A stretch of 64,000 nucleotides of DNA from Candidatus Shapirobacteria bacterium (GTDB taxonomy: Bacteria; Patescibacteriota; Microgenomatia; UBA12405), in NCBI GenBank assembly GCA_028704635.1, contig JAQWFB010000002.1, positions 64,693-128,692 on the forward strand. Reading direction: 5' to 3'. Shown one piece after another: positions 27,569 to 63,887 of the stretch (positions within the stretch are counted from its first letter, which is position 1; each line of letters begins with the position of its first letter). Under the pieces are notes generated by a model. It had not been told where the DNA came from. It did no database searches and was given only the letters and a program-made list of their open reading frames with translations. A program made the translations under genes and the position numbers.

Positions 27569-27618
27569 ATCTAAAAACAGTCACGTTCTCCCTCTCCATG
27601 TTATCCTTTTTATATATA

Positions 27619-40471: not shown

Positions 40472-40640
40472 ATTATTATATTAATTATTAATATATATAA
40501 ACCATGTATAAATCATATAATTTTGAACCTAAATCATTATCACCGCAAAAAAAATTTAATCTTAATCAGATGGCTGAAAGATTAGTTCCATTTTTAATCA
40601 TTGCTACCACCTTTGTTTGGCTCTGGAAATAGTCCTTTTT

Positions 40641-41099
40641 ATGACCGCCCCCATCATTGTCTCCTATCAAAACTGGCTCAAATCCAAGTCCTACTCTGAG
40701 GCCACCATTCGCAATTATCTTGCCGACCTCAAAAAATATTTTCTCTTCACTAATTCCAATGTTGATCAAGTCACCGACAAAATTTTCGATCAAGACAACT
40801 TGTCTTCCTATTTCCAAAACATCAACCAAGACTCCAACTACAAACGTTTTCTTGCTTCTCTTTCTAAATTCTTCCAATTTGCCTTAGACCAACACCTAAT
40901 TTCTGTCAATCCTTTCTCCAAAGCCCTTAAAGTTGAACCCGAAATTGATCTCGAAGATGTTATCAAACTATATCAACAACAATTAGAGACCAAAAATTTT
41001 TCTCTTTCGACTATTCGAAACTATATCAATGACATTCATCAATTTATTAATTGGGCACAAAATGAAAGTCGCCCTGTTAAGGAAGATGTCACTAAGTGA
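40641..41099 (+). CDS. Protein made of two phage-integrase N-terminal SAM-like (core-binding) domains, with no catalytic domain.
   Basis: YQNWLKSKSYSEATIRNYLADLKKYFLF and LYQQQLETKNFSLSTIRNYINDIHQFINWAQ match the [YF]..L...S..T...Y...L..F..F pattern of the XerC/D N-domain. The ORF track opens at TTG 40617; ATG 40641 is preferred. Confidence 0.5.
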   Translation: MTAPIIVSYQNWLKSKSYSEATIRNYLADLKKYFLFTNSNVDQVTDKIFDQDNLSSYFQNINQDSNYKRFLASLSKFFQFALDQHLISVNPFSKALKVEPEIDLEDVIKLYQQQLETKNFSLSTIRNYINDIHQFINWAQNESRPVKEDVTK

Positions 41100-53100: not shown

Positions 53101-56100
53101 TCCATTCCAACGGTACTGTTAATTCTATGTTTTTATCCACTGCCGGTAACTTAGGTATCGGTACTACTGCTCCAACCTCTAAATTACATGTCATTGGTAA
53201 CGGTAATATCACTGGTAATTTAACAATCGGTGGCACAGCTACCATCCCCAGAATTTTTATTAATAGAACCAGTAATACCGCTTCTGGTTTAAGTTGGTAC
53301 AGTCCTTCTTATACAGCTTGGTCAGAATATATGGGTCCAGCTGGCACAGCTTCCCAAGGACCAACAGGTAATATTACTGCTCCAACAGGAACATTAGTTA
53401 CTACTTGGGGTTTACGTAGTTTTATTGAAAATGCTAGTGGATATGGTTGGACATGGGAATCTGGAACAAGTGGCACCACCGCCCCCTCAATCGTAGCCGA
53501 ACTTTCATCCAATACTGGCAATTTTAAAACTATTGGAGCTGGAAATTTTGGCGGCAATCTTACTGTAGCCGGTGAAACTTATCTTAACGGTACTGTTCTC
53601 GAAGGAGACTCAAAAACCATGTTCCGTTATTCTGATAGTTATCTTAGACTCAACGAAGACAACGATTTTGGTAATGGTATCTGGACTGGAAATAGTAACT
53701 ATATGACTGGATCAGGATATATATCTCTTGGTTCAAACGGCGGCACAACCACTGGATCAATGTATTTATACGGCGGTGCTTACACCGGCACAAACTTAAT
53801 TAAACTTGATTCCAGTAGCACTTCTGCTATTTCTTATTTCAATGCCGGCAACGTCGGCATCGGCATCACCAATCCTCTTTATAAATTATCCGTCGGCACT
53901 TCCATCGGTGGTGATATTAATGGTAATTTAATGGCCCTTAGATTTTTAGACATTGGCAACACTCGTTATGGTTTCATCCCAAACAACACAGCATCCAATA
54001 AAAATTCTTTGTCTCTCACTTACACTGGTTCCATCAGATTTAATTACAATGACATCAGTAACTCTCATATCATTGCCGGTCCTGCCTCTCGTATCCAAAG
54101 TTTTTCTAATGGTCTTTTACTCGGCGTCAGTTCTACTACCACCGGCAATGTTGCTGGTTGGGATAATGATCTTTTCTTAAAAACGAATGGCAACGTCGGC
54201 ATCGGCACCACTGCTCCAGGAAGCAAATTAGATGTTGACGGAAATATTACCCAATCAGTCACTCATGGTAATAATATGAAATTATGGTTATCTGCAGCCA
54301 GAAATGGTAGTGGAACTGGAGAAATTGGTCTCTATTCATGGATTAGTGAACCAGGTATGACTTGGACTGGAGGGGGTATTGCTCGCAATATGTACAATAA
54401 TACTAGTTTTCCAAGAGTAAACACGGCACTATCTGGACAAATGTTACATTTCACCGAATCTGGAAACATTGAATTCGTTCTTACTAATACTTCAGGAACA
54501 CAAATTACCCCTATGACCATCCAATACAATAGTGGCAACGTCGGCATCGGCACAGCTAGTCCAAATCAAAAACTAGTTGTCACCGGAGGAAATATTGCTA
54601 TAGAGCAGAATTATCAATTTAATTTAAGCGTTGGTGATATTGGAGCTGCCTATTTAACTTATCCAAATTCTACAATAGGAGCAAAGCTTTATAGTTATTA
54701 TGATATCAACCTAACGACAAGATCAGGCGGTGGACTTACTATTGATGGTGCCACCGGCAACGTCGGTATTGGCACCACTGCTCCTAGAAGCAAACTAGAA
54801 GTCGTTTCTGGTACTCCAAATACCGATGCTGATTTATCTGGTACTGCTGGCAGTTTCAATTCTGCCACTCCAACTGGTCAAAGTTCAACTTTAAGTATAG
54901 AAAGTAATGATACTATAGCTGTTAATACTGGAGGTGTTCTTGGTTTTGGTGGTCGATACTCAGGCACTGCCTACGCCAATTGGGCCTCAATCAAAGGTTT
55001 AAAAGCCGATGGAACTTCTGGAAACTATGGTGGTTATCTTTCATTTTGGACTCGTCAAACCGGAGCTGGAAGTGTCGAAAGAATGAGAATTTCAGATGCT
55101 GGCAACGTCGGCATCGGCACAACTAATCCTGGAACCAATCTTGACCTTAATGGCACTTTCCGCCTCAATAACAATATATACCTCAATTCCGGCATTGCTA
55201 ATTTTTCAAATCTTGGTGATGTTGTTAATTTTAATAAATACCTCGGATCTAATACTACTCCCTCTTGGTCTACTGGGACTGCTGGTGGTACTGCTCGTTA
55301 CTCTCATTCTTCTGTTCTCTATAATGGTAAAATCTACTCTTGGGGAGGATCTAATGGTGCTCCTTTAAACACTGTTGACATCTATGATATTGCCTCTAAT
55401 ACCTGGTCTACTGGTACTGCTGGTGGTACTGCTCGTAATTATTATTCTTCTGTTCTCTATAATGGTAAAATCTACTCTTGGGGAGGATCTAATGGTTTTT
55501 CTTTAAACACTGTTGACATCTATGATATTGCCTCTAATACCTGGTCTACTGGTACTGCTGGTGGCACTGCTCGTTACGCTCATTCTTCTGTTCTCTATAA
55601 TGGTAAAATCTACTCTTGGGGAGGATATAATGGTTCCTTTTTAAACACTGTTGACATCTATGATATTGCCTCCAATACCTGGTCTACTGGTACTGCTGGT
55701 GGCACTGTTCGTTACCAACATTCTTCTGTTCTCTATAATGGTAAAATCTACTCTTGGGGAGGATTTAATGGTTCTAGTTTAAACACTGTTGACATCTATG
55801 ATATTGCCTCCAATACCTGGTCTACTGGGACTGCTGGTGGTACTGCTCGTTACTCTCATTCTTCTGTTCTCTATAATGGCAAAATATATTCTTGGGGAGG
55901 ATCTAATGGTTCTAGGTTAAACACTGTTGACATCTATGATATTGCCTCTAATACCTGGTCTACTGGGACTGCTGGTGGCACTGCCCGTTACGGTCATTCT
56001 TCTGTTCTCTATAATGGCAAAATATATTCTTGGGGAGGAACTAATGGTTCTTCTTTAAACACTGTTGATATTTATGATATTGGTAATCGTCAAAACATTC

Positions 56101-59100
56101 TTTCCATTCAAGAAAATGGACAAGATATGCTTAATTTCACCACTAATTCCACTCTCTTCACAAACTCTGGTCGCTTCTCCATTATGGGTGGCAACGTCGG
56201 CATTGGCACCACCGCTCCTTCTGCCCGCCTCACTGTCCTTGGCGATGGTAGTTCCGCCACTTCCGATTTTACTTTATTAAACAACAATGGTTCCGTTAAT
56301 CTCGAAATCCGCACTGGACTAACTGCTCTCTTTAATACTTTTATTGGAGTTGGAGTTGGTAGTTCCAACACCACCGGCCACTACAACACCGCTAATGGCA
56401 GTTATTCTCTTGCTTACAACACCACCGGCTACTACAACACCGCTAATGGTTTTCAATCTCTCTACTCCAACACCACCGGCTACTACAACACCGCTAATGG
56501 TTTTCAATCTCTCTACTCCAACACCACCGGCCACTACAACACCGCTAATGGCAGTTATTCTCTCTTTTCCAACACCACTGGCCGCGACAACACCGCTAAT
56601 GGTTTTTATTCTCTTTTTTACAACACCACCGGCTCCAACAACACCGCTAATGGTTTTTATTCTCTTTTTTACAACACCACCGGCTCCAACAACACCGCTA
56701 ATGGTTTTTATTCTCTTTTTTACAACACCACCGGCTCCAACAACACCGCCATGGGTTACAATTCTCTTGGTTCCGGCACCACCCTAAATTCCAACATCGG
56801 TCTTGGTTATTATGCTGGCTATAAACTCTCCGTTGGTTCCAGTAATATTTTCATCGGTAACAATAATGGTGCTACCGGTTCTTATGACAACCGTCTCTAT
56901 ATTGGTAATGGTTCAAATCCAATTATTTATGGTGATATGTCCACTGGAAACATCGGCATCGGCACCACCAATCCCCTCGAAAAATTAACAATTTCAGGAA
57001 GTGGTGCTGACGTACTTAGTCTAAAAGGTAGTGCTGGTACTAGATTTATTTTTAATGAGACTTGGAGTGGAACAGCTGATATTTTAGGAATTCGCAACAG
57101 TAACACTTCTAATCCTCAAGTTGTTCTTGATTGGAATGGCAACGTCGGCATCGGCACCGCCAACCCTCTTTTTAAAACTGAAATCTATGGCACTACACAA
57201 CTAACAGGTAATTTAACTGATGCTGGTAATCGAGGTAGTATGCTTGCTCTTAATGCAGCTGATTCAAATTATGGTAGTGGTGGAGCTTTACTTTTTGGTA
57301 ATCAACAATCCGATATAGCTAACTCTATCGGTTGGGCTGCAATTAAAGGATTTTTAATAAACGGAAATGGTAATACAACAGGTGATCTTGCTTTTTCTAC
57401 TAGAAACTCAACAGCAGATACTGCCTTAACCGAAAGAATGAGAATTTTAGCAACTGGCAATGTCGGCATCGGCACTGCTAATCCAGGAACTTTATTAAAT
57501 ATCTCCCAATCTATTCCAACCGGCACAGGAGCAATACCTACAAATAGCGGTTTACTTTTAGATTCAAATTCAAATAATTACCTTACCTTTAGAAATACTT
57601 CAGATAACGGATCTTATGCTGGTTTACAATTTTTAGATAATAATGTCGGGGGTTATATTGCTTTTAGAAATGCTATTGCCGGAGGAGCACATACTGACAG
57701 TATGGTATTAGGAACCTATCAAGATTTCTATTTCCAAACTGGAGCAAGTGGTATCGTGGATGGCAAAACTGATGTAATGACAATAAAACAAGGTGGTAAT
57801 GTCGGCATCGGTACCACTAATCCTGGCACCCGATTTGCTGTTGCTGGTCTTACTGGTACTACTGCTGGAAGCTACCTCCGTTATTACAACAACGATTTTT
57901 ATTACTATTCTTCCTCTGCTCGTTATAAAGATAATATTGAGGTTTTTAATGATGATTTCTCTAAAATCCTTAATATTGAACCTAAAATCTTCACCGACAA
58001 AGTCTCAGGCGAAAGAAATATCGGTCTTATCGCCGAAGAAATGGATGCCGCCGACCTAAAACACTTAGTCACTTATAAAAATGGCTTACCTGACACTGTT
58101 GAATATCAACTCGTTTCTGTCTACCTTCTTCAACTCGCCAAACAACAAAAACTCCAACTTGATAATCTTAATAATGACCTCACTTTAACTTCCACTGGCC
58201 AAATTAATGTCAATATGAATATTTCCGATGAAGTCCTCTCTTCTCTTGGTTATAATGGTGCCAAAAATGAAATCGAATCTGCCACCTATTCCATTACTGA
58301 TACTTTAGGCAACACCGTTTCTCGTATTTCTCAATTCAGCGAAATCGCTTCCGCTAAAATCAAAACTGGTCTCCTTTCCGCCACCAACATCATTACTAAA
58401 AACATGGTCGCTGAAAAAATCGTCTCTCCAAAAGCCACCATCAATCATCTTATTTCTACTGACATCCAAACCACTTCTGTCACCACCGAAGAACTAAATG
58501 CTCTACGATCTACGATCAACGATCTAACAGCTAACACTGCCACCGTCTCCACTCTTTATGCTGACAATATTATTTCCAAAGAAGGTTCCATTGGTGAATT
58601 AATGACCGCCAAAGTCAGTGCCCTCCGTGACGAACTTAAACAACTTGTAGAGACGCAACATGATGCATCTCCATCTGGAACCATCACTGGATCATCAATT
58701 CTTTCTCAATCTTCCGGCTGGGCAATGAATATTGCCAGTGATTCGGCAAAAATTACTGGTGACCTCGAGCTCGGCAACAGTCTCATTGTCGGCGCTAAAC
58801 TCACTGTCAACGGTGACACCCAACTCGGCAATGCCTTTATTTCTGGCACTTTCACTGCCGGCGAAATCGCCATTAAAGACAACTTTATCGAAACCACCAA
58901 CACCGCTCTCTATATCCAGCCATCACAAACTGGTTCAGTCCACATCATGGGCGACACTTTAGTCATCGCTGAAGACGGCAACATTCAAATCAATGGCAAC
59001 CTCACTGTTTCTGGCTCTCTCATGGCTAACCTCATTGTTGCCGACCAAATCCAAGCCAACAAATTAACTGCCAATGAAGTCTCTTCTAATGAAATAAAAA

Positions 59101-59438
59101 TTGCCACTGATTCCGCTCAAACCATCATTGCCGAATCTGGTTTTGGTGCCATTGCCACTTCTTCCGCCAAATTAACTTCCAACGCCACCGCCGGCACCGC
59201 CACTCTCCCAACTGGCAAAACCGAAATCGTCATTACCAATAATAAAATCACCGCCAACTCCATGGTCTACCTCACCCCAGTCGGTTCCACCAACAACCAA
59301 GTTCCCTACATCAAAACCAAAATGGTTTATTCCGAAGCTGAACTGCTCGCTGATCCAACTTTACAAAATTACTTCACCATCGCTCTTGATAATTATCTTG
59401 ACAAAGATATCGATATCAATTGGTGGATTATTAATTAA
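41115..59438 (+). CDS. Giant (6107 aa) membrane-anchored surface protein. Domains in order are an SAM-like N-domain, a TM, about 5000 aa of tail-fibre-like beta-helix repeats, six Kelch repeats, eight NTANG (YadA-head-like) repeats, an S74 intramolecular chaperone domain and a C-terminal WWIIN module.
   Basis: One uninterrupted 18.3-kb frame. The N-terminus is FNEYAAFLKSTNLSDASIQRKLSSLASFQKFL. The TM is IVIFSLFAISAGLGFTLY. Recurring motifs are GNVGIGTTNP..KL.V.G and NLNA[DQ][YL]L[DN]G. The chaperone region is SSARYKDNIEVF...IGLIAEEMDAADLKHLV...YQLVSVYLLQLAKQQ. The protein ends DIDINWWIIN. Confidence 0.85.
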   Translation: MDLNKLFNQSRFNEYAAFLKSTNLSDASIQRKLSSLASFQKFLIKKKYVSFVETHDRASLLSISEHADSLIPKTSLFSNLKSKIKLPPVIDDLRSNFLFRYIVIFSLFAISAGLGFTLYRQAVLQSQQNLAYSTASAMITGGRFLSFQGRLTDTAGNPIISSTSIVFKLYPSVGSGTTLYTSQTGNSQTVVPDENGIFSVTIGRSHGTTIPSSVFTENAEVWLEITAGGETMNPRQQIATVGYALNSETLQGLPPSASGTKNTVLVIDGLGNLNLGETSPTIKSTSGTLGIEGQAVLIKASDGSGGNITINPDSNGVINLITEGTGATGFINATNANLASGNLFNATINNLNRGYNFINFSNYSVGTSIVSRFSVDAYGNTIIGNNLTIGGTFVSVGSTNLVTKLNSDLLDGHHSSYFLSVGDTGSLPYVNDATNTTLTRSGTSGPYTLGLNLNNTNTWTAIQNLSAGATISNLSVGGTFISVGSTNLVTNLNADLLDGNNSTYFVNIGQTGNFITTITGVGISVSPTSGTSRTLTNMGIMNATNGTLTRSGSIGSYTLGLNLNNSNTWTAIQNLSAGATISNLSVGGTFISVGSTNLVTNLNADYLNGLPSSSFVGIGSTGNFITNLTNGVGITITGSGSSRNIAFDYGASLLATGNKIGLNFGSINTWTAKQTFGNAAIGGTLALTQGAQDGYILTSDASGNSYWAPNTGVGTIYFAGSGLTLTGTTFKLGGALTENANLTIGNTSAFFINSTTGNVGIGTTNPNRALEIMKQVDGEVQLRLGNGPTTFWDLGRDGSDGYFNIKDQNGAKRLVINDISGNVGIGTTNPTSKLTVAGNVNISTSLNVGTSLVVGTSIELSSSGNRSLSYYDSSTNGYFTQMQTTATGGYGTYGPVSGDWALYNRFSGANTRGWIWQLGTVNVAGLNGKGDFQNAGNLTVGGTLSIGSVPTASDNNTVLTSVGGVVSSINTSAWDKNASDDLTTSTNLFVIKADSGTAETLNVGNTINFVGGLGLGSTVSATDTITFNIGSSAGISVNTDTIGINIGLTGLGFSGTKLINTGLVGVSNSTLTRIGSNGNYTVGLNLANINTWTALQTFGNATVGGTLTMTGTNVGTGTTALFIASNGTVTKRALGTMAFDSGTYDNYNHWKLQTNSNGTTNVLTGNTVNFINGIGISLVQSGSTITVNNIGTGTTYAAGVGLSLSSSNIFSIDYDSTLDLNGNKISLNTGNANTWTGLQTFNATGAPFAVGSSVLVTNLNAQYLNGISSNGFVGIGQTGNFITTITGVGISVSPTSGTSRTLTNMGIMNATNGTLTRSGSIGSYTLGLNLGSNNSWSNGIGVSGTTNLTNALNVGGTVYFGSYVGIGTASPNKQLQIGSAANNSSIYNDYIGSINNMVLESRDSNDSGAFVFRSNSDVGTSDLVQITRLGYVGIGTTAPGYKLDVSGTGRFTSNLTVGGTLALTQGAANGYILTSDTSGNAKWLPNTGIGTTYAAGVGLSLSSSNIFSIDYDSTLDLNGNKISLNTGNANTWTGLQTFNATGAPFAVGSNTLVTNLNAQYLNGISSNGFVGIGQTGNFITTLTAGTDISITGSGVGRTINDTSTLSTVTGRGSSTSTMLSLLGGAYFGTAGATQGVWKANGTVGIGTTNPIYGKVEITTTASNTGGLSLYRGTGSTARSWITSNDVWLMQRSTNDNAGIAIDASGYVGIGTTAPGYRLDVSGTGRFTSNLTVGGTVSLTGTNVGTGTTALFIASNGTVTKRALGTMAFDSGTYDNYNHWKLQTNSNGTTNVLTGNTVNFINGIGISLVQSGSTITVNNVGAGTTYAAGVGLSLSSSSVFSINFGSANTWTGLQTFNATGAPFAVGSSVLVTNLNAQYLNGISSNGFVGIGQTGNFITTITGVGISVSPTSGTSRTLTNMGIMNATNGTLTRSGSIGSYTLGLNLGSNNSWSNGIGVSGTTNLTNALNVGGTAYFGSYVGIGTASPSSKLDVAGAISLIQNYPLIMKSASGTYGGAIRYDTLGGEFMTMATKNSASKLLFATGFDLTASQGSSNILPTTVGLAIYNNNVGIGTTNPTSKLTVAGNGNFTGNLSVGGTVTLSSSVASNTSDTTALMINGSNVVTKRTLGDLAFQNNASLGWIAKTASGNLTIGTGTTLNFTGINGLTTANVGSSQITFSLGGFLSQNTDIGFSGFSLSFSDGGNTLVSFSSTGNTFYNPTTFTSSGDVSIAYDLNFTNSNNSNINTAGPFSINAGEVFNSSNLTLQTYNSGKIILNSSNLYTDGTYFGIGTTNPTSTLSVNGNADINNLVIDGTSGTGLNISNNSLTTDISLQNGETIDNDTNGRINFSISDLYLNSSIFLTSTRLFQAGNGTVTTPAYSFSSDTNTGIYRIGEDNIGVGTSGILRLTVAGNGNVGITKNLNVGGTLTTTTLKATNAQDTTKVTNLNADLLDGNDSSVFTTHNEVTDLGTVTFSSGSAVTTATFITELENKGAFDNYHSIMKASWDYSGNSDITDTGFGTFELAGCVVETWTDDSSDVTRGNITVRITRPTTGSGGGQILVYNDQGSTYSPGWRQIWNSSTDGSGSGLDADLLDGLHSTAFEVPLTFTNGLTRSSNDVHFGGALTENTRLNIGNTEVMFFKYANGNVGIGTTNPLAKLNVYGQSLFGTTRTGVGAASSVINLGSDEYINFAWSTSYPTGNYHRIGKDRTFDNYALSYISTGADATTNLAHVFRTTNTDSALAITAGGNIGIGTTAPGYKLDVSGTGRFTSNLTVGGTLALTQGAANGYILQSDANGNAKWIVPYGVGGTNSLSAGTDISITSVGIGRTINNTSTLSTVTGRGSSTSTMLSLLGGAYFGTAGATQGVWKANGTVGIGTTNPSGGKLQIFGEGAANGLSIYNGTGDTLRLYRVNNVGILSRGGVDTAGIAINVSGNVGIGTTNPGVKLTVTRGGAIYDAAPTLGSGTVGVFSLLSGNGLYGLYSGISSNGDTWLQSQRNDATTAAYNILLNPSGGNIGIGTTNPLYKLHVSGDALISTRLGIGVTNASYALNVSGNGNITGKLNIGTTTTTTSLNLTNTAVGGSSIAAFLSGNSGLIGYISTVGWDKNTADDYTSWTLQADGANGSSITSGSTVNFAHGTNISLVKSGNTITINNTASPYTASNGLSLVGQDIRLGGTLTQNTDIGFSGFSLSFSDGGNTLVSFSSTGNTFYNPTTFTSSGDISIAYDLNFTNSTASYIRSQAPLYIQTESPYANLDLNLTAANAGQIYLNSNVQAMANLTVGGTFTSVGSTNLVTNLNAQYLNGISSNGFVGIGQTGNFITTLTNGTDINITGSGTSRTINNTSTLSTVTGRGSSTSTMLSLLGGAYFGTAGATQGVWKANGTVGIGTTAPGYKLDIINNSATQLRVASGVGQLQGGIRFGNYDATQTADILFTASGQNSLDIRTNYSSTSNKITLSPGTVTAMTLLGSGYVGIGINPLYKLHVSGDALISTRLGIGATNANFALNVVGNGNFTDSLSVGKTLTTTTLKATNAQDTTVITNLNADYLDAQNGSYYDQRVYTSTNNYLGGYYVSGGSEKPNNTIFGAGKLKLAMLSGTNLGFGGSWNDVLWLSSYTGGDVKGSYAIIADKYSDNLYFSRQDYDSGTWGTGNKLWHSNNDGIGSSLNADLLDGLHASAFLTTLTGGTDISITGSGVGRTINDTSTLSTVTGRGSSTSTMLSLLGGAYFGTAGATQGVWKANGTVGIGTTNPLQKLQVAGDINIESGSGIRINNTATSGYYLRGNGTRFVSSGIQAADVPTLNQDTTGSAGTLSREDNRTISPSELTAGKLKFGFTSYTNNDTGPYADFLHFRSYTDATGGNDNLLVLNKTDFGMRLYQQTWGSASAYSTYKDIALVDNGAALNYLPKFSGVGTNVRVTNSSIFDNGNVGIGTTNPSYKLDIQNTSTSMAVNIGSVAQTLYSDLVLHTNGGSGEIFKAGSAYTSWGGPSSLNIYNSSGPIAFHSNGTVNSMFLSTAGNLGIGTTAPTSKLHVIGNGNITGNLTIGGTATIPRIFINRTSNTASGLSWYSPSYTAWSEYMGPAGTASQGPTGNITAPTGTLVTTWGLRSFIENASGYGWTWESGTSGTTAPSIVAELSSNTGNFKTIGAGNFGGNLTVAGETYLNGTVLEGDSKTMFRYSDSYLRLNEDNDFGNGIWTGNSNYMTGSGYISLGSNGGTTTGSMYLYGGAYTGTNLIKLDSSSTSAISYFNAGNVGIGITNPLYKLSVGTSIGGDINGNLMALRFLDIGNTRYGFIPNNTASNKNSLSLTYTGSIRFNYNDISNSHIIAGPASRIQSFSNGLLLGVSSTTTGNVAGWDNDLFLKTNGNVGIGTTAPGSKLDVDGNITQSVTHGNNMKLWLSAARNGSGTGEIGLYSWISEPGMTWTGGGIARNMYNNTSFPRVNTALSGQMLHFTESGNIEFVLTNTSGTQITPMTIQYNSGNVGIGTASPNQKLVVTGGNIAIEQNYQFNLSVGDIGAAYLTYPNSTIGAKLYSYYDINLTTRSGGGLTIDGATGNVGIGTTAPRSKLEVVSGTPNTDADLSGTAGSFNSATPTGQSSTLSIESNDTIAVNTGGVLGFGGRYSGTAYANWASIKGLKADGTSGNYGGYLSFWTRQTGAGSVERMRISDAGNVGIGTTNPGTNLDLNGTFRLNNNIYLNSGIANFSNLGDVVNFNKYLGSNTTPSWSTGTAGGTARYSHSSVLYNGKIYSWGGSNGAPLNTVDIYDIASNTWSTGTAGGTARNYYSSVLYNGKIYSWGGSNGFSLNTVDIYDIASNTWSTGTAGGTARYAHSSVLYNGKIYSWGGYNGSFLNTVDIYDIASNTWSTGTAGGTVRYQHSSVLYNGKIYSWGGFNGSSLNTVDIYDIASNTWSTGTAGGTARYSHSSVLYNGKIYSWGGSNGSRLNTVDIYDIASNTWSTGTAGGTARYGHSSVLYNGKIYSWGGTNGSSLNTVDIYDIGNRQNILSIQENGQDMLNFTTNSTLFTNSGRFSIMGGNVGIGTTAPSARLTVLGDGSSATSDFTLLNNNGSVNLEIRTGLTALFNTFIGVGVGSSNTTGHYNTANGSYSLAYNTTGYYNTANGFQSLYSNTTGYYNTANGFQSLYSNTTGHYNTANGSYSLFSNTTGRDNTANGFYSLFYNTTGSNNTANGFYSLFYNTTGSNNTANGFYSLFYNTTGSNNTAMGYNSLGSGTTLNSNIGLGYYAGYKLSVGSSNIFIGNNNGATGSYDNRLYIGNGSNPIIYGDMSTGNIGIGTTNPLEKLTISGSGADVLSLKGSAGTRFIFNETWSGTADILGIRNSNTSNPQVVLDWNGNVGIGTANPLFKTEIYGTTQLTGNLTDAGNRGSMLALNAADSNYGSGGALLFGNQQSDIANSIGWAAIKGFLINGNGNTTGDLAFSTRNSTADTALTERMRILATGNVGIGTANPGTLLNISQSIPTGTGAIPTNSGLLLDSNSNNYLTFRNTSDNGSYAGLQFLDNNVGGYIAFRNAIAGGAHTDSMVLGTYQDFYFQTGASGIVDGKTDVMTIKQGGNVGIGTTNPGTRFAVAGLTGTTAGSYLRYYNNDFYYYSSSARYKDNIEVFNDDFSKILNIEPKIFTDKVSGERNIGLIAEEMDAADLKHLVTYKNGLPDTVEYQLVSVYLLQLAKQQKLQLDNLNNDLTLTSTGQINVNMNISDEVLSSLGYNGAKNEIESATYSITDTLGNTVSRISQFSEIASAKIKTGLLSATNIITKNMVAEKIVSPKATINHLISTDIQTTSVTTEELNALRSTINDLTANTATVSTLYADNIISKEGSIGELMTAKVSALRDELKQLVETQHDASPSGTITGSSILSQSSGWAMNIASDSAKITGDLELGNSLIVGAKLTVNGDTQLGNAFISGTFTAGEIAIKDNFIETTNTALYIQPSQTGSVHIMGDTLVIAEDGNIQINGNLTVSGSLMANLIVADQIQANKLTANEVSSNEIKIATDSAQTIIAESGFGAIATSSAKLTSNATAGTATLPTGKTEIVITNNKITANSMVYLTPVGSTNNQVPYIKTKMVYSEAELLADPTLQNYFTIALDNYLDKDIDINWWIIN
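41267..41294. repeat. REP-like palindrome (family 2) lying in-frame within the 5' end of the giant ORF.
   Basis: GTAGAGACGCACGATCGCGCGTCTCTAC encodes ...FVETHDRASLL.... Confidence 0.8.
55258..56085 (+). repeat. Six tandem 138-bp coding repeats (Kelch-like blades) inside the giant gene.
   Basis: The unit WSTGTAGGTARYSHSSVLYNGKIYSWGGSNG.PLNTVDIYDIASNT occurs six times, with above 90% nucleotide identity between units. Confidence 0.85.
56373..56770 (+). repeat. Eight tandem 51-bp coding repeats (YYNTANGFQSLYSNTTG; Hep_Hag / YadA-head-like).
   Basis: Direct repeats ...accaccggc[tc]actacaacaccgctaatgg[tc]... read in sequence. Confidence 0.8.
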
Positions 59439-59443
59439 AAAGC

Positions 59444-59479
59444 AACTTTATAAACTTGATGAACTTTATAAACTTGATA
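59444..59479. repeat. Tandem 18-bp duplication in the intergenic region.
   Basis: AACTTTATAAACTTGATG followed by AACTTTATAAACTTGATA. Confidence 0.7.
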
Positions 59480-59488
59480 AACTAAATT

Positions 59489-60988
59489 ATGGCCCAACAA
59501 TTTACTCAAGAACAAATTGAAAAACTTAAAAGTCTCGGCATCGAAGTCGACTCAAAAGACGTCATTACCAGCGAAAACCAACTCGCCGACCTAACCACCC
59601 CTCAGCCAACTGAAACACCAAATCTCCCTCCCTTACCAAAAGAAGAAGTTAATTCGAATCCCACCCAACCAGAAAGTCTCCCTGTCAAGGGAGATGTCGA
59701 TTTATCGACAGAGGGTTTTAAACCAGAAACCGACAGTTTTAAACAACCAATGGTAGAAGTTGAACCAACCGAACCCGAAGAAAATTCCCCCTCCTTGTCA
59801 AGGGAGGGGTTAGGGGTGGGTTTAACCCAACCTGAAAGTCTCCCTGTCAAGGGAGATGTCGATTTATCGACAGAGGGTTTTAAACCAAAGGAAGATCCCA
59901 ACCAAAAAAAGATCCCCACCGTTTTCCCTCTTCTCTCCATTTCCGGCCTCACTCTTCTTTCCTTCGGCGGTCTTGTTCTTTTAAAAGGTTCTGGAACACA
60001 AAATGATTTACCCCCTCAAAATACTTCTGCAAAAAACAATCCTGCTTTGCAGGACATCACCCCAACACAAGTACCTAAATCTATCCAACATTATCTTTTA
60101 ACATCACAACAATACTTTAGCCAAGCTGTTTCTCAACAGTCAACTGATAATTCAGCCTCTGTCGAATCACTCAATAATTCAATTATAGCCGCAACTGAGG
60201 CCATAAAAGAATTTCCAGACGACTATCGTGGCTATCAACAGCGTGGCAACATTTATCAGGCTCTTACTGATTCAAAACCCGAACTTTTAGATCAATCTAT
60301 ATCCGATTTCGCCTCTGCTTTTAAATTAAATTCTCAATCAGCCGAAGTTACCCGTTCCCTCGCCTCTCTTTATGCCAAAAAAGGTGATGCCAACAAAACT
60401 ATTCTCTTTCTAAACCAAACTGTTGCTCTTGAACCAACCAAAGCTCAAAATTTTTATGATCTTGCTAAAATTCAGCAACAAGCCGGTCTTCTTTCCCAAG
60501 CTCTAGATACCTATACTAAACTAACCACCCTGGTCACCGATCCCACCCAAAAAACTCAAGTCGAATCCGAAAAAGCTGCTCTCGAAAAACTGGTTGCTCA
60601 AAATCCAAATTCTTCAAAAACTCCAATCGAGGAAAATCAAACTCTACCTCCCGTCACTGCTCCGTCCTCTCTCGACTCTCCTACTATTCAAGCCATGGGT
60701 GAAGGCGGTCTTATTATTGCCGCTCCCGAAGAGGACAAATCAATTTCTGTCACCAATCAAACCGAGTCTAATTCTCTTTCTGGCACCTCCATTCTTTCTT
60801 CTGGTCAAAAAGAAATTACCATCCCCAACGACAACATTTCTTCTACTTCCCAAGTATACGTCACTATTACAAAAGGTGGCAAAAACCAAAATCTTCAAGT
60901 CATTTCCAAATCAGAAAAATCATTCGTCGTCGGTCTCGACTCCCCCATTTCCGAAGACATCGAATTCAAGTGGTGGATAATTAATTAA
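59489..60988 (+). CDS. Bitopic membrane TPR-repeat protein that shares its C-terminal WWIIN module with the giant protein.
   Basis: 499 aa. An N-terminal region carries a 2x direct repeat (TQPESLPVKGDVDLSTEGFKP). A TM (LLSISGLTLLSFGGLVLL) is followed by TPR-like helices (YRGYQQRGNIYQAL..., AEVTRSLASLYAKKGD..., AQNFYDLAKIQQQAG...). The C-terminus ...EDIEFKWWIIN aligns with the last roughly 60 aa of the giant protein. Confidence 0.6.
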   Translation: MAQQFTQEQIEKLKSLGIEVDSKDVITSENQLADLTTPQPTETPNLPPLPKEEVNSNPTQPESLPVKGDVDLSTEGFKPETDSFKQPMVEVEPTEPEENSPSLSREGLGVGLTQPESLPVKGDVDLSTEGFKPKEDPNQKKIPTVFPLLSISGLTLLSFGGLVLLKGSGTQNDLPPQNTSAKNNPALQDITPTQVPKSIQHYLLTSQQYFSQAVSQQSTDNSASVESLNNSIIAATEAIKEFPDDYRGYQQRGNIYQALTDSKPELLDQSISDFASAFKLNSQSAEVTRSLASLYAKKGDANKTILFLNQTVALEPTKAQNFYDLAKIQQQAGLLSQALDTYTKLTTLVTDPTQKTQVESEKAALEKLVAQNPNSSKTPIEENQTLPPVTAPSSLDSPTIQAMGEGGLIIAAPEEDKSISVTNQTESNSLSGTSILSSGQKEITIPNDNISSTSQVYVTITKGGKNQNLQVISKSEKSFVVGLDSPISEDIEFKWWIIN

Positions 60989-61062: not shown

Positions 61063-61509
61063 GTGAGAGATATTACATGTGTTGAAATAATGACTCAAAA
61101 GGGAAACTTAAAATATCTAGAACAATTAAGATGGGCAGCCAAAATAAATAGACATAAAATGACTAAAGGTGAATCAAAGATTTGGTATGAATTCTTAAAA
61201 AATAGACCAATGAATTATAAATTTACCAGACAAAAACCATTGGATAGATTTATTTTAGATTTTTATTGTTCTGAATTATTATTAGTAATTGAAATTAATG
61301 GTGGATATCATATTAAAAAACAAGAACAGGATTCAAAGAGAGATAAATTTTTAAATTGTTTAAATATTAAAACCATAAGATTTAAAAATGAAGAAATATT
61401 AAATAATTTAGAAAAAGTTAAAAATGAAATAATAAAAAATATCCAAGAAAGAAAAGCCTCCCTGTCAAGGGAGGTGCCCAAAGGGCGGAGGGTTTTAAAC
61501 AATAAATAA
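61063..61509 (+). CDS. DUF559-family (Vsr-like) endonuclease-domain protein, paralog of 20462..20866. Its 3' end is fused to a miniature repeat.
   Basis: KFTRQKPLDRFILDFYCSELLLVIEINGGYH...RDKFL..LNIKTIRF. The last roughly 18 codons (ASLSREVPKGRRVLNNK) are the translation of the repeat at 61452-61497. Confidence 0.8.
   Translation: MRDITCVEIMTQKGNLKYLEQLRWAAKINRHKMTKGESKIWYEFLKNRPMNYKFTRQKPLDRFILDFYCSELLLVIEINGGYHIKKQEQDSKRDKFLNCLNIKTIRFKNEEILNNLEKVKNEIIKNIQERKASLSREVPKGRRVLNNK
61452..61497. repeat. Double-hairpin miniature repeat (DUF559-associated): GCCTCCCTGTCAAGGGAGGTGCCCAAAGGGCGGAGGGTTTTAAAC.
   Basis: Hairpin 1 is CCTCCCTGTCAAGGGAGG, hairpin 2 is GCCCAAAGGGC, and the tail is GAGGGTTTTAAAC. 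A near-identical copy lies at 63957-64000, with degenerate copies at 61600-61730, 33205-33252 and 21003-21050. Confidence 0.85.
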
Positions 61510-61730: not shown

Positions 61731-63887
61731 TTAAGGAGCCGGTGCAACAGTAGGTTCAGCCACTGGTTGTGATTCTAATTGACTAGCTGGCACATCCACC
61801 TTTTCTTCACTCCCCACATTTGTAGCTGCCCCTTGTACTTGTCCTTCTGTTGGTGCCTTTTGCTGTTCCACAGGTTGTGCTTGTTGCATTTGTTCCACAG
61901 GTGGCACTACCTGTTGTTGAACCGGTTGTGTCTGTGTTTGCTCTTTTGAACCTGTTTGACCTTGAGCTGCCGCTGCCTTAGCCGCTTCAGCTTGTTGTTG
62001 AGCCTGTTGTTCAGTCAATTTTGCCAACTCTGCTTTCCAAGTCTCCAACTCTTTTGAAGCCGTGGTGTAATCTGATGAATCAGCTGGTACTAAAGCCAAA
62101 GCTTTTTCTAGTCTAGTCACCGCCGCACCAATCTTATTTTGTTGCTTAGCAGCATATGCCCAGTTATACCAAGCGTTGGCAAAATCAGCTTTACTTGTTG
62201 CCGCTTGCTCAAAAGCTCTCTCTGCTTGTTCATAGCTACCAGCTGCATAAAGTAATCCCCCCATATCTAAATAATAAGTTGGATTAACTGCATCTAAAAT
62301 CACTGTTTGCTGATAAGCCTGATAACTCCAATCAGCCGCTCCATCCACTAATCCCACCAAGGTTTTATAAATTCCTGCCAAATTATACCAATACTCTGGA
62401 TTCTTTTGATTCAATGAAACCGCTGCCTTTGCCTCTCGCACTGCTTGTTGTACTAAAGTTGAAGCTTTTGTCTTATCGTCATCACTAATATCTGATTTGC
62501 TTAATAAAGCCTGTGCTAAAGATAGATTTACTTGAGAATAGGTTTTTCGATAACTTGCTAAATTTGGGTTAAGTCCAATCGCCTTAATTTGTAATTCATA
62601 AGTATTAGTTCCATCATTCTTTGCTGCTGCCACCAATGACTTTCTCATATAAAAATCACCTAAAAATATTCTCGTTGTCCAAAAACCTCCAAACCCTACT
62701 CCAGCCAAAACCAATACTGTCACCACATAAGGCATCACATTAAAATTATTTTCACCCACATTCAAAACCAGTCTAGTCTCTTTGGTTGCAAGAATATTAT
62801 TCGATAAAATCCACACTAATAAAAATACTGTCACTAAATCTAATGGCAATAATAAAGTTATAGCCAAAAATAAGGCCAATTGTCCAACTTTAACCGTCCT
62901 CTTTAATCTCAAAACCATTGTTATTAAATAGAAAACCAAAACCAAACCTATCACTCCCAATTCAGTCCAAATTTGCAAAATCCCCATTGAAGAAGATGAA
63001 AATGATCCCGACCAAAAACTTGTCAAATTAAAACTGGCTGGTCTGAATGAATTAAAAGCTTCCAAAAAATTACCAATTCCCACTCCAAAAATTGGATATA
63101 TTTTAAAAGTTTCCGCTGCAATTATCCACGCACTTTTAAAATCTAAAAATATCCATCCGGCTTTAAAAACTCTATAAACGTCTAGTAAAAATAAAAGTGA
63201 GAAAAATATTGTCGCCCCTGCTTCCACCCAATAATCTTTTACATCAGATTTTTCTTTTACCTTCTTCAATAATCCTTTCAACCATCCAAAAATCAAGAAA
63301 AGGAATAAAGTCGCCTCAGCTAAAACTGAACCAGTCAAAGACCATGCCGCATTAATTGACAATAATGGATCAGTTTTTGGGATCAATAATGGTAATTTAC
63401 TTGCTGGCAACAAAAAAACGACTAATGAAACAATTCCTGAAATTAATCCTGCAATTGTCAAAAACAAAAATTGCTTTTTAGTTTCTTCCTTATCATTAAC
63501 CTGAAGCCACACAAAAAACAAAATGAAAAATGAAATTACTGTTCCCATTCCCATTGGATTCATTAAAGACATCATCTTTGACCCAGCATCAAGTCTAAAA
63601 AATGTCACCCCCGACCAAATCACAAAAATTAAAAACAACCATAAAAACTTATTTGTCTTTACTATCTTTTCTTTGTCAGTTACTAATTTAACAGTCCATA
63701 AAATCAACACCACAAAAGCTAAAACCGCCAAAGCTAAATTTTTTCCAAAACCAAATCCATCCAGCACAATCGGAATAAAAATGATTGGGAAAATTAAAAA
63801 AATCGATCGGACAAAATATTTGAGAATGGTGTTCATAGACTCAGCATAACAAAAGCATTTTTTTTTGACAATCATCAAAACGGTCAT
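61731..63887 (-). CDS. O-antigen ligase/polymerase (Wzy_C)-like polytopic membrane protein fused to C-terminal TPR repeats and a Gln/Ala-rich tail.
   Basis: About 10 TM helices, then a periplasmic loop pattern typical of O-antigen ligase (Wzy_C), then TPR-like helices (EYWYNLAGIYKTL, NAWYNWAYAAKQQNK) and QQAQQQAEAAKAAAAQGQ low complexity. The start could instead be the internal MNTILKYF. Confidence 0.6.
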   Translation of the reverse strand: MTVLMIVKKKCFCYAESMNTILKYFVRSIFLIFPIIFIPIVLDGFGFGKNLALAVLAFVVLILWTVKLVTDKEKIVKTNKFLWLFLIFVIWSGVTFFRLDAGSKMMSLMNPMGMGTVISFFILFFVWLQVNDKEETKKQFLFLTIAGLISGIVSLVVFLLPASKLPLLIPKTDPLLSINAAWSLTGSVLAEATLFLFLIFGWLKGLLKKVKEKSDVKDYWVEAGATIFFSLLFLLDVYRVFKAGWIFLDFKSAWIIAAETFKIYPIFGVGIGNFLEAFNSFRPASFNLTSFWSGSFSSSSMGILQIWTELGVIGLVLVFYLITMVLRLKRTVKVGQLALFLAITLLLPLDLVTVFLLVWILSNNILATKETRLVLNVGENNFNVMPYVVTVLVLAGVGFGGFWTTRIFLGDFYMRKSLVAAAKNDGTNTYELQIKAIGLNPNLASYRKTYSQVNLSLAQALLSKSDISDDDKTKASTLVQQAVREAKAAVSLNQKNPEYWYNLAGIYKTLVGLVDGAADWSYQAYQQTVILDAVNPTYYLDMGGLLYAAGSYEQAERAFEQAATSKADFANAWYNWAYAAKQQNKIGAAVTRLEKALALVPADSSDYTTASKELETWKAELAKLTEQQAQQQAEAAKAAAAQGQTGSKEQTQTQPVQQQVVPPVEQMQQAQPVEQQKAPTEGQVQGAATNVGSEEKVDVPASQLESQPVAEPTVAPAP

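Follow-up and report, generated by a model that had tools for sequence, protein, structure and literature searches.

Phage fibre genes are usually followed directly by the gene for the assembly factor of the fibre, as with T4 gp37/gp38, where the accessory gene behind the fibre gene acts on that fibre at its C-terminal end. To our knowledge, none of the known phage fibre chaperones has a domain in common with its fibre and none is a TPR protein. Folded C-terminal domains are also used for sorting, as by the T9SS of the diderm Bacteroidota, in which many unrelated secreted cargoes are tagged by a small β-sandwich, the CTD, at their extreme C-terminus.

The closest described relatives of the domain studied here are the C-terminal domains of tailspikes in Pfam family PF24146 (K1-lyase_C), among them K1 lyase (7W1C/7W1D), Pam1 (7EEA) and K64-1 S2-4 (9K4A). 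These are units of ~70-90 aa with about seven strands, and they form the extreme C-terminus of a fibrous protein. In solved homotrimeric spikes, three such units make up a dome by which the trimer is closed and locked. In K1 lyase, three C-terminal β-sandwiches form a dome that locks the trimer; the sugar sites described are located on the β-helix and between subunits, and the sandwich is given the role of a structural lock (PMC8822698). The C-terminal domain of depolymerases is described in a review as essential for trimerisation, and Peptidase_S74 domains drive trimer folding and then self-cleave, which is also established knowledge of that family (PMC11652154).

A C-terminal module common to two neighbouring proteins

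The 64-kb stretch of DNA analysed here (the window) encodes a giant fibre-like protein, a TM-TPR protein directly behind it and a convergent membrane protein. The features are as follows.

41115..59438, + strand: giant fibre-like surface protein, 6107 aa (ORF, translation, Pfam, hydropathy)
41400-41474, + strand: N-terminal TM segment of the giant, aa 96-120 (hydropathy)
~55263-56051, + strand: six Kelch repeats, after fibrous repeats (Pfam Kelch for the Kelch repeats)
57912..58058, + strand: Peptidase_S74 intramolecular chaperone/self-cleaving domain (Pfam PF13884, 22.3 bits, cutoff 22)
58746..58883, + strand: Bactofilin-like β-helix segment between S74 and the module (Pfam Bactofilin, 19.6 bits, below cutoff)
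59121..59162, + strand: pre-module segment with conserved 'IIA', common to the TPR protein (alignment, conservation)
59163..59438, + strand: C-terminal β-sandwich (aa 6017-6107) and stop codon of the giant (AlphaFold, Pfam PF24146, Foldseek, BFVD)
59444..59478, + strand: 17-nt direct repeat (AACTTTATAAACTTGAT, two copies) in the 50-nt gap between the giant and TPR genes (sequence reading)
59489..60988, + strand: TM-TPR-module protein, 499 aa (translation, Pfam TPR_17, AlphaFold, Foldseek)
59918-59986, + strand: TM segment of the TPR protein, aa 144-166, after a cytoplasmic N-terminus (hydropathy for the TM)
60083-60601, + strand: TPR domain, aa 199-371 (Pfam TPR_17, Foldseek)
60602-60745, + strand: disordered linker, ~50 aa (AlphaFold model)
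60710-60730, + strand: conserved 'LIIAAPE' motif preceding the module (conservation)
60746..60988, + strand: β-sandwich module (aa ~420-499, last residues 'FKWWIIN') and stop codon of the TPR protein (BLASTP, AlphaFold, conservation)
61731..63887, - strand: polytopic membrane protein, 718 aa, with weak Wzy_C similarity and a TPR domain (Pfam, orthologues)

Both the giant and the TPR protein terminate in ...WWIIN and a stop codon. An earlier note, made from the sequence alone, had proposed that they have a C-terminal module in common, and a single BLASTP comparison of the last ~100 aa bore this out (35% identity, E=1e-14); the match spans 86 columns and the likeness thus extends beyond the final five residues. 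The module does lie at the extreme C-terminus, but its length is ~90-105 aa rather than the ~60 first suggested, and the start proposed for it, 59255, is off the codon boundary. Conservation common to both proteins begins at the 'IIA' motif (giant aa 6003, TPR aa 408), and the folded parts comprise aa 6017-6107 of the giant (nt 59163-59435) and aa ~420-499 of the TPR protein (nt 60746-60985). A six-frame motif scan of the window found one copy in each of the two proteins and no third, and the other large surface proteins of the window lack the module. By hydropathy, each of the two carriers has a single hydrophobic segment, in agreement with the single-pass topology with the bulk outside that had been suggested for them.

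The family search that the earlier note had advised, run with a profile of the module, recovered 2098 cluster representatives at E<=1e-3, 883 of them at E<=1e-10. Every one of 157 inspected relatives carries one copy, ending <=15 aa from the C-terminus, and short extensions past the module are tolerated in some. Only two architectures were seen among the 157, giant "tail fiber" proteins and TM-TPR proteins. The module-bearing giants occur in Shapirobacteria, in which NCBI names the orthologues 'tail fiber domain-containing protein', and in other Microgenomates.

Residues conserved in both classes include N6023, N6042, S6049, Y6052, N6061-Q6062, K6069, D6098 and W6103-W6104 (giant numbering), and other, class-specific conserved residues distinguish the giant copy from the TPR copy. 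Identity between the two copies is 36.2% within a genome and 35.2% between genomes. Judged from these comparisons, the copies are old paralogues that have not undergone gene conversion and form separate orthologous lineages. Co-evolution of the giant and TPR copies gave a partial Mantel r of 0.57, a value confounded by shared phylogeny.

Fold and family of the module

Structure prediction, likewise advised in the earlier note, returned a confident β-sandwich for both copies. The AlphaFold model of the giant module has seven strands (pLDDT ~90-95), the last of which is 'INWWIIN'; that of the TPR copy (pLDDT ~90) has six, equivalent to strands 2-7 of the giant module. The giant module covered the full PF24146 profile at 24.4 bits (E=4e-5), 2.6 bits under the cutoff of 27. 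One relative, P0001, scored above that cutoff (29.1 bits) and 17 of 81 relatives matched the family; no PF24146 match was obtained in Pfam for the TPR copy. The top PDB matches in Foldseek were tailspike C-terminal domains (Pam1 tailspike 7eea, prob 1.0; K1 lyase 7w1c/d; K64-1 S2-4 9k4a), and BFVD gave 14 matches at E<=1e-3, with many fibres and spikes of phages among its matches. The homologous domain likewise reaches the stop codon in seven spikes of Klebsiella phages, and a profile-profile comparison of the module with eight Klebsiella-phage domains gave a weak match (E=0.0036, probability 9%).

The module is thus very probably a divergent member of the phage tailspike and tail fibre C-terminal family PF24146. 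The likeness is seen in HMM score, sequence and fold: the giant's domain follows a β-helix, as in the tailspikes, and a Trp lies in the last strand of both (K1 lyase ends ...VAWEVYL). The suggestion of a new, family-specific domain does not stand, as the fold is not new and falls in or beside PF24146, with structural matches to tailspikes. The novelty lies in where the domain occurs: a tiny uncultured bacterium has it on a giant fibre of its cell surface and a second time on the adjacent membrane-anchored TPR protein. The carrier differs accordingly from the described ones, being a cellular, membrane-anchored giant of Patescibacteria and not a virion spike, and the second copy is borne by a non-fibrous protein. 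The invariant WWII(N) end and the upstream 'IIA' are specific to this branch, for which no phage or IMG/VR relative was found.

The C-terminal cassette of the giant

In module-bearing giants the module closes a conserved cassette of ~500 aa, in the order S74 chaperone, coiled coil, β-helix and β-sandwich, and the giant ends exactly where the β-sandwich ends. Like the S74 domains of endosialidases, phage tail fibres and MYRF, that of the giant carries a Ser-x-x-Arg-x-Lys sequence upstream of the module, with a putative Ser-Lys dyad at S5600...K5605 ('SSARYKDNI'), 508 aa from the C-terminus. Among relatives the best S74 match had E=8e-17, and the motif 'SDxRLKxNI' was located 445-602 aa from the C-terminus in 22 of them. 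Matches of PHROG tail proteins to the S74 region fall at the ends of the PHROG profiles: phage S74 domains form the extreme C-terminus, whereas ~400 residues lie beyond that of the giant (coiled coil, β-helix and module). Cleavage would therefore release a spike-like fragment of 508 aa, and the module may not remain on the mature fibre. The region beyond S74 is common to 102 of the 157 relatives; a Bactofilin match in Pfam was found in 8 of 81 (best E=1e-7). The pre-module segment had pLDDT <50 in the AlphaFold monomer (model residues 1-16).

The TPR protein and the gene neighbourhood

The TPR protein matched Pfam TPR_17 at 25.1 bits (cutoff 24.4) and consensus TPR proteins in Foldseek (E=3e-9); 16 full-length orthologues were included in the alignment. 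Gene order is conserved: the giant is followed by the TM-TPR-module protein and this by the convergent TPR membrane protein with Wzy_C likeness. At 12 of the 14 loci whose flanks are long enough, a large ORF with the ending NWWIIN lies <=10 kb from the TPR gene, as it does at locus L035 and in the window, and the Wzy_C-like orthologue is beside the TPR gene at 22 of 25 related loci. This arrangement supports a functional link between the giant and the TPR protein. Giants without an adjacent TPR partner also occur, as in the Gottesmanbacteria locus L033, so TPR docking cannot be the primary role of the domain. The Wzy_C matches of the 718-aa neighbour are below the Pfam cutoff (E=0.003 in the window, 2e-4 in one orthologue) and the sole PDB match of its profile was 9rmk_A, 'Oligosaccharyltransferase' (E=2.7e-5), a weak indication that it may resemble an O-antigen ligase, polymerase or oligosaccharyltransferase.

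Proposed role of the module

We tentatively propose, as the likeliest of the readings considered but one that may well fail as a whole, that the domain is a divergent PF24146 member serving as an oligomerisation and docking unit that ties a TPR assembly factor to the giant fibre. On the giant it would form a trimeric cap. The TM-TPR protein bears a copy from an old duplication, along with the short conserved strands in front of it, and a flexible linker holds both outside the membrane. With this copy it would co-assemble with the C-terminal ends that fibre subunits present as they emerge from the membrane, or would mimic those ends. It would thereby act as a factor dedicated to trimerisation of the giant fibre, after which S74 would cut the C-terminal cassette off. 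The 'IIA' motif is hydrophobic, conserved in both classes and unplaced in the monomer models, and the two faces of the invariant 'WWII' strand are hydrophobic as well; these features would fit a buried surface between subunits. The role of dedicated assembly chaperone, raised in the earlier note, is a plausible, though inferred, one for the TPR protein. In phage pairs such as T4 gp37/gp38, Alteromonas phage V22 fibre and 'chaperone cap', and Pam3, a small accessory gene likewise follows the fibre gene. The phage chaperones, however, are soluble non-TPR proteins that carry no copy of a fibre domain, whereas the partner here is membrane-anchored with a paralogous terminal domain. It counts against the proposal that no β-helix precedes the domain of the TPR protein, so that a fibre for it to 'cap' is lacking there.

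It is rather unlikely that the module is instead a ligand-binding tip, the two copies binding the same glycan without contact with each other. The target would be either a polymer of the cell's own envelope, which the Wzy_C-like neighbour might make or ligate, or a sugar on the surface of a host cell. That neighbour is indeed conserved, but its assignment is weak and the catalytic-His position of the ligase is not conserved in it. The fibre is anchored N-terminally, which places the C-terminus at its distal end, although the module would be lost from the mature fibre if S74 cleaves. Many of the residues conserved in both classes are polar or Trp, as in sugar-binding sites, yet no carbohydrate-binding-module family in Pfam or NCBIfam matched. 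Among phage proteins, one C-terminal module of KP32gp38 binds capsule (PMC13082707), while in K1 lyase the sugar sites described lie on the β-helix and between subunits and the sandwich is given a locking role (PMC8822698).

Independent self-association, in which the domain would be a homotrimer or stability cap in each protein without heteromeric contact, is improbable. The TPR protein would have gained the domain by duplication of the 3' end of the neighbouring gene and would form trimers of its own, a scheme consistent with the trimer-locking tailspike domain, with the distinct conserved residues and separate lineages of the two classes, and with giants that lack an adjacent partner. Retention of the giant-TPR order at most loci, and of the pre-domain strands in the TPR protein, suggests more than a coincident origin.

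A sorting or attachment tag, by which an envelope machine such as the Wzy_C-like TPR protein would recognise the domain and anchor or modify its carriers by analogy with the T9SS CTD, is very improbable, and the general sorting or anchoring signal first considered is unlikely. The C-terminal position in all 157 relatives, the small β-sandwich and the polytopic protein beside the TPR gene would suit such a tag. A tag of this kind would nevertheless have two cargo architectures only, with one copy of each in the window and none on its other large surface proteins, would lie downstream of S74 in the giant, and would tolerate short C-terminal extensions; the phage homologues of the domain have no sorting role. 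As the earlier note had observed, the module resembles none of the known signals: NCBIfam gave no match to T9SS CTD, LPXTG or PEP-CTERM models, nor were their motifs found on direct reading of the sequence. LPXTG sortase and PEP-CTERM/exosortase signals, alike in C-terminal position only, comprise a short motif with a hydrophobic helix behind it and then a basic tail, whereas the module is folded and mostly polar, has neither hydrophobic helix nor basic tail and runs out in ...DIDINWWIIN.

Chance or compositional likeness of the last residues only has a practically negligible probability and is ruled out by the length and significance of the BLASTP match, the 883 cluster representatives and the matching confident folds.

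Identification of the shared C-terminal module

The coding features on which the analysis was based are as follows.

41115..59438, + strand: ORF of the giant, a fibre-like surface protein of 6107 aa
~55263..56051, + strand: six near-identical Kelch repeats within the giant, forming a beta-propeller (Pfam E=5e-63)
59489..60988, + strand: ORF of the TPR protein, 499 aa, with its start codon 50 nt past the stop codon of the giant

Translation placed WWIIN at the C-terminal end of both proteins, and their last ~100 residues aligned at 35% identity over 86 columns (BLASTP E=1e-14). The earlier note had described a shared C-terminal module of about 60 residues. The shared unit is real, and it is larger than that: conservation common to the two proteins starts at an 'IIA' motif (giant aa 6003, TPR protein aa 408), and the folded part covers aa 6017-6107 of the giant and aa ~420-499 of the TPR protein. 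Chance similarity confined to the last few residues was excluded by the pairwise E value and by the large family recovered in the profile search described below. A six-frame motif scan of the 64-kb window found no third copy of the module, giving two in total.

Hydropathy analysis identified a single hydrophobic segment near the N-terminus of each protein (giant aa 96-120, TPR protein aa 144-166). The sequences are consistent with the single-pass topology proposed previously, with an N-terminal transmembrane (TM) segment and the bulk of the protein outside. Two copies of a 17-nt direct repeat (AACTTTATAAACTTGAT; 18-nt period, 59444..59478, + strand) take up most of the 50-nt gap between the giant stop codon and the TPR start codon.

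In the TPR protein, TPR_17 scored 25.1 bits against a Pfam cutoff of 24.4. AlphaFold predicted a TPR domain of nine helices (aa 199-371, pLDDT above 90), which matched consensus TPR proteins in Foldseek (E=3e-9), joined to the module by a disordered linker of ~50 aa. Foldseek with the model of the full protein returned generic TPR proteins only. The cytoplasmic N-terminal region contains an exact 21-aa internal duplication (TQPESLPVKGDVDLSTEGFKP; aa 59-79 and 113-133, window 59663..59887, + strand) that is absent from the orthologues; a short N-terminal helix motif (..LTPEQLxxLxxLGI..) is conserved among them.

Relatives of the module fall into two architectures

The earlier note had suggested a search for other proteins ending in WWIIN. 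A profile of the module searched against 1.84 billion cluster representatives recovered such a family, with 2098 representatives at E<=1e-3 and 883 at E<=1e-10. Each of the 157 sequences in an inspected sample had a single copy whose end lay at most 15 residues from the C-terminus (at most 1 residue in 129), and about 125 ended in [NK]WW[ILV][ILV]N. The named sources, taken in part from a word-indexed protein search that yielded mainly short fragments, were Shapirobacteria, Woesebacteria, Gottesmanbacteria and 'Patescibacteria group'.

Only two architectures were present in this sample. The first comprises large to giant proteins of up to 5546 aa, which in Candidatus Shapirobacteria are named 'tail fiber domain-containing protein' by NCBI, and many of which share the N-terminal region and TM segment of the giant. 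The second comprises TM-TPR-linker-module proteins of 320-500 aa (16 full-length sequences in the alignment). The ~400 residues ahead of the module were common to 102 of the 157 relatives. No phage relative of the WWIIN branch was found in GenBank phages (tblastn) or in IMG/VR, and PHROGs gave no match to the module; a phage origin of this branch was accordingly rejected.

One Gottesmanbacteria locus (L033, LCHM01000065.1, 1..2732) contains a collagen-repeat protein whose ORF shares 20 nt with an 84-aa ORF for the module, an arrangement that resembles a fibre gene broken by a split or a frameshift. The module ORF there has no TPR partner behind it; in its place are a gene of 23S_rRNA_IVP type and several genes that resemble those of type IV pilins.

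The module resembles the C-terminal domain of phage tailspikes

The giant module was modelled with AlphaFold from an alignment of 12 relatives, using a 110-aa query starting at giant aa 5998. The structure prediction called for in the earlier note yielded a confident seven-strand beta-sandwich (pLDDT ~90-95 at query residues 20-110) in which 'IDINWWII' is the final strand. The same fold, with six strands (aa 431-498, pLDDT ~90), was predicted in the model of the full TPR protein. These strand counts match the approximately seven strands of PF24146, described in Pfam as 'K1 capsule-specific polysaccharide lyase C-terminal domain'.

The giant module covered the entire PF24146 profile (positions 1-70) at 24.4 bits (E=4e-5), under the cutoff of 27 bits; the TPR protein module gave no match to this HMM. 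The relative P0001 scored 29.1 bits, over the cutoff, 17 of 81 scanned relatives matched at E<=1e-3, and precomputed PF24146 annotation was present on four relatives (P0001, P0005, P0017 and P0165). The top PDB match of the giant module in Foldseek was the tailspike of cyanophage Pam1, in its C-terminal domain (7eea; prob 1.00, rmsd 2.6 A, 86 columns), followed by the K1 lyase (7w1c/7w1d, prob 0.85-0.93) and the K64-1 depolymerase S2-4 (9k4a, prob 0.95), with modest E values for these PDB matches (0.03-0.3) and TM ~0.5. Among predicted viral structures (BFVD) there were 14 matches at E<=1e-3, nearly all of them phage fibre or spike proteins and several, at E~1e-3, annotated with the PF24146-type domain itself.

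Direct profile comparisons were weak. The module HMM scored about 0 bits on the K1 lyase, and hhalign of the module with eight Klebsiella-phage domains gave E=0.0036, co-linear over 78 columns with the terminal Trp residues paired. The module profile gave only non-significant matches against the PDB (best relevant, the 7eea C-terminus, E=1.2), and phmmer of the whole C-terminal cassette of the giant gave no matches linking to solved structures. The module is therefore a distant relative of PF24146, a relationship drawn from the Pfam HMM together with the fold.

The position of the module was also compared. In the giant it ends at the stop codon after a bactofilin-like beta-helix, and in the seven Klebsiella phage spikes compared the homologous domain likewise stops exactly at the stop codon. 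In the TPR protein it follows the TPR domain and disordered linker, not a fibrous or beta-helical part. In the K1 lyase, the C-terminal domain is a 4+3-strand sandwich, three copies of which come together as a dome, locking the trimer and sealing off the beta-helix (PMC8822698), and the depolymerase C-terminal domain is reviewed as essential for trimerisation and possibly an aid to receptor binding (PMC11652154). The module is very probably a PF24146-type tailspike C-terminal sandwich. Since fold and family are already known, it is not a new domain.

The module is distinct from known sorting signals

The suggestion that the module lies outside the LPXTG, PEP-CTERM and T9SS CTD families held up. 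No NCBIfam family matched it at E<=1. LPXTG and PEP-CTERM signals consist of a short motif, a hydrophobic helix and a basic tail, whereas the hydrophobic segments of the giant and the TPR protein are exclusively N-terminal and the tails, which read ...LDKDIDINWWIIN and ...SEDIEFKWWIIN, carry neither a C-terminal hydrophobic helix nor a basic end. T9SS CTDs are recognised by type A/B models and by many diverse cargoes per genome; here there were two architectures among 157 relatives and two copies in the 64-kb window. The view of the module as a new sorting signal is revised by this analysis.

The giant ends in a phage-type assembly cassette

The C-terminal ~500 aa of the giant, from Peptidase_S74 through the module (57912..59435, + strand), form a cassette in which S74 is followed by coiled-coil-like sequence, the bactofilin-like beta-helix (sub-threshold in the giant, E=1e-7 in relatives) and the module. 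With the C-terminal 979 aa as query, Peptidase_S74 reached 22.3 bits (cutoff 22), and with a longer piece 20.7 bits; the best relative matched the Pfam model at E=8e-17. The putative catalytic Ser-Lys motif, S5600-S-A-R-Y-K5605, lies about 508 residues from the C-terminus, and the canonical SDxRLKxNI was located 445-602 aa from the end in 22 relatives. Thus S74 is internal in the giant, whereas phage S74 proteins terminate with the chaperone domain (the PHROG matches fall at the ends of their profiles). In the ~1 kb after the Kelch repeats, 'GYYNTANGFxSLxxNTTG' repeats resemble adhesin head repeats.

In endosialidases, T5 fibres and MYRF, the S74 domain folds the upstream trimer and then cleaves itself. 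If the domain of the giant behaves in this way, it would fold the upstream trimer and cut before S5600, and the predicted cleavage would yield a 508-aa spike-like fragment (coiled coil, beta-helix and cap) carrying the module. As read from sequence, such fibres in Shapirobacteria and other Microgenomates terminate in a full assembly cassette of phage type, made up of a chaperone predicted to cleave itself, a beta-helix and a spike cap.

The two module copies are anciently separated

Giant-type and TPR-type modules formed separate conserved classes. Residues conserved in both were IIA, N6023, G6027, L6031, N6042, T6046, S6049, Y6052, N6061-Q6062, K6069, F6087, D6098 and W6103-W6104-I6105; class-specific positions were T/L6025, A/S6026, S/G6058 and N/K6102. 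Identity between giant and TPR modules was the same within genomes (36.2%) as between genomes (35.2%). By this comparison the duplication is ancient and purifying selection acts on the two copies separately, and gene conversion between them was rejected. The distance matrices of the two copies correlated with the TPR domain controlled (partial Mantel r=0.57, 0/2000 permutations); because shared phylogeny inflates such tests, this signal is taken as compatible with co-evolution of the copies.

A conserved three-gene neighbourhood

Two further genes follow the TPR gene in the window.

61063..61509, + strand: DUF559 (Vsr-like endonuclease) gene, between the TPR gene and the Wzy_C-like gene
61731..63887, - strand: Wzy_C-like neighbour, 718 aa, with a polytopic membrane part, a TPR domain and a Q/A/P-rich tail

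A scan with the TPR family as query and one genome per species returned 24 loci, all Patescibacteria-like. Of the 14 loci with sufficient flanking sequence, 12 had a large ORF ending in NWWIIN within 10 kb of the TPR gene; it lay upstream in the same orientation in 10 and was convergent in 2. The gap was 1 bp to 7 kb, with inserted genes in some loci. Gene order in one locus on a Woesebacteria-labelled contig (L035) was identical to that of the window. More constant still, an orthologue of the Wzy_C-like neighbour adjoined the TPR gene in convergent orientation in 22 of 25 loci, and the conserved unit is therefore one of three genes, not two. The DUF559 gene was present in only 3 related loci, and is thus probably a mobile insertion.

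On the membrane part of the 718-aa protein, Wzy_C matched weakly, below cutoff both for the window protein (E=0.003) and for an orthologue (2e-4). The sole PDB match of its profile was 9rmk_A, 'Oligosaccharyltransferase' (E=2.7e-5, 130 residues), and the ligase catalytic-His position was not conserved.

Possible roles of the module

The favoured reading, a tentative one, is a role in docking and assembly, combining oligomerisation with docking. By homology to the tailspike domain, the module may act as a trimer cap. Both faces of the invariant WWII strand are hydrophobic, the conserved hydrophobic 'IIA' strand ahead of the module was left unplaced in monomer models, and the pre-module strands are kept in the TPR protein too; these features fit a buried subunit interface. 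A membrane-tethered TPR protein bearing a copy of the terminal unit of the fibre would then be a partner that mimics a subunit end. In phages the fibre gene is usually followed by its chaperone gene. The TPR gene directly after the giant fibre gene is alike in layout, but here the partner would mimic the subunit end.

The main rival, a glycan-binding role shared by both copies, is consistent with the conserved polar-plus-Trp residues of the module and with the Wzy_C-like neighbour, and was considered somewhat unlikely. Independent homotrimerisation of each protein was judged improbable. A sorting or attachment tag was given little credence. The predicted S74 cleavage would free the module-bearing fragment, which makes it less likely that the mature fibre is anchored through the module. 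Equally speculative is a recognition tag of a small dedicated Microgenomates envelope system, in which the Wzy_C-like protein would recognise bearers of the beta-sandwich and, with the TM-TPR-module protein as adaptor or primer, ligate or decorate them with envelope glycopolymer; if true, such a system would be the functional counterpart, in a monoderm, of T9SS-CTD/A-LPS attachment or PglL-type protein O-glycosylation, derived from a phage-spike domain.

The cassette and its partner genes bear on how a 6000-residue fibre folds outside the membrane. Clues to how the ultra-small, host-dependent Patescibacteria attach to other cells are few, and giant surface proteins are one of them. This fibre has two fixed neighbours, a membrane-anchored TPR protein that carries its own copy of the cap and a TPR-containing membrane protein of Wzy_C-like type; the three genes are thus a candidate assembly or decoration system. 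A literature search on PF24146, WWIIN and Shapirobacteria/Patescibacteria tail-fibre proteins found nothing relevant; specifically, no description was found of a WWIIN branch carried by giant cellular fibres in Microgenomates, of an internal S74 chaperone domain with a spike-like tail behind it, of the paralogous module copy on a TM-TPR protein, or of the fixed three-gene neighbourhood. PF24146, hitherto tied to phage depolymerases, is extended here to cellular proteins and to a non-fibrous partner.

Other features of the region

Two further large surface proteins of the window lack the WWIIN module.

27598..32565, + strand: surface protein of 1655 aa
33268..38406, + strand: surface protein of 1712 aa

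Each contains DUF2341 and six Laminin_G_3/concanavalin-like lectin domains.

MAG records at many related loci (L002, L004-L007, L009, L012-L015 and L018-L022) are titled 'uncultured Gammaproteobacteria bacterium', and one is titled Oscillospiraceae; on Shapirobacteria-type clusters these labels look wrong or like placeholders.

A stand-alone 160-aa protein (40617..41099, + strand), ending 15 nt before the giant gene, contains a phage-integrase N-terminal SAM-like domain (PF02899, E=3.5e-12). The cytoplasmic N-terminus of the giant (aa 1-95, 41115..41399), common to 19 of 157 relatives, is similar to this protein by eye, a likeness that would place a DNA-binding-type domain inside the cell and a surface fibre outside.
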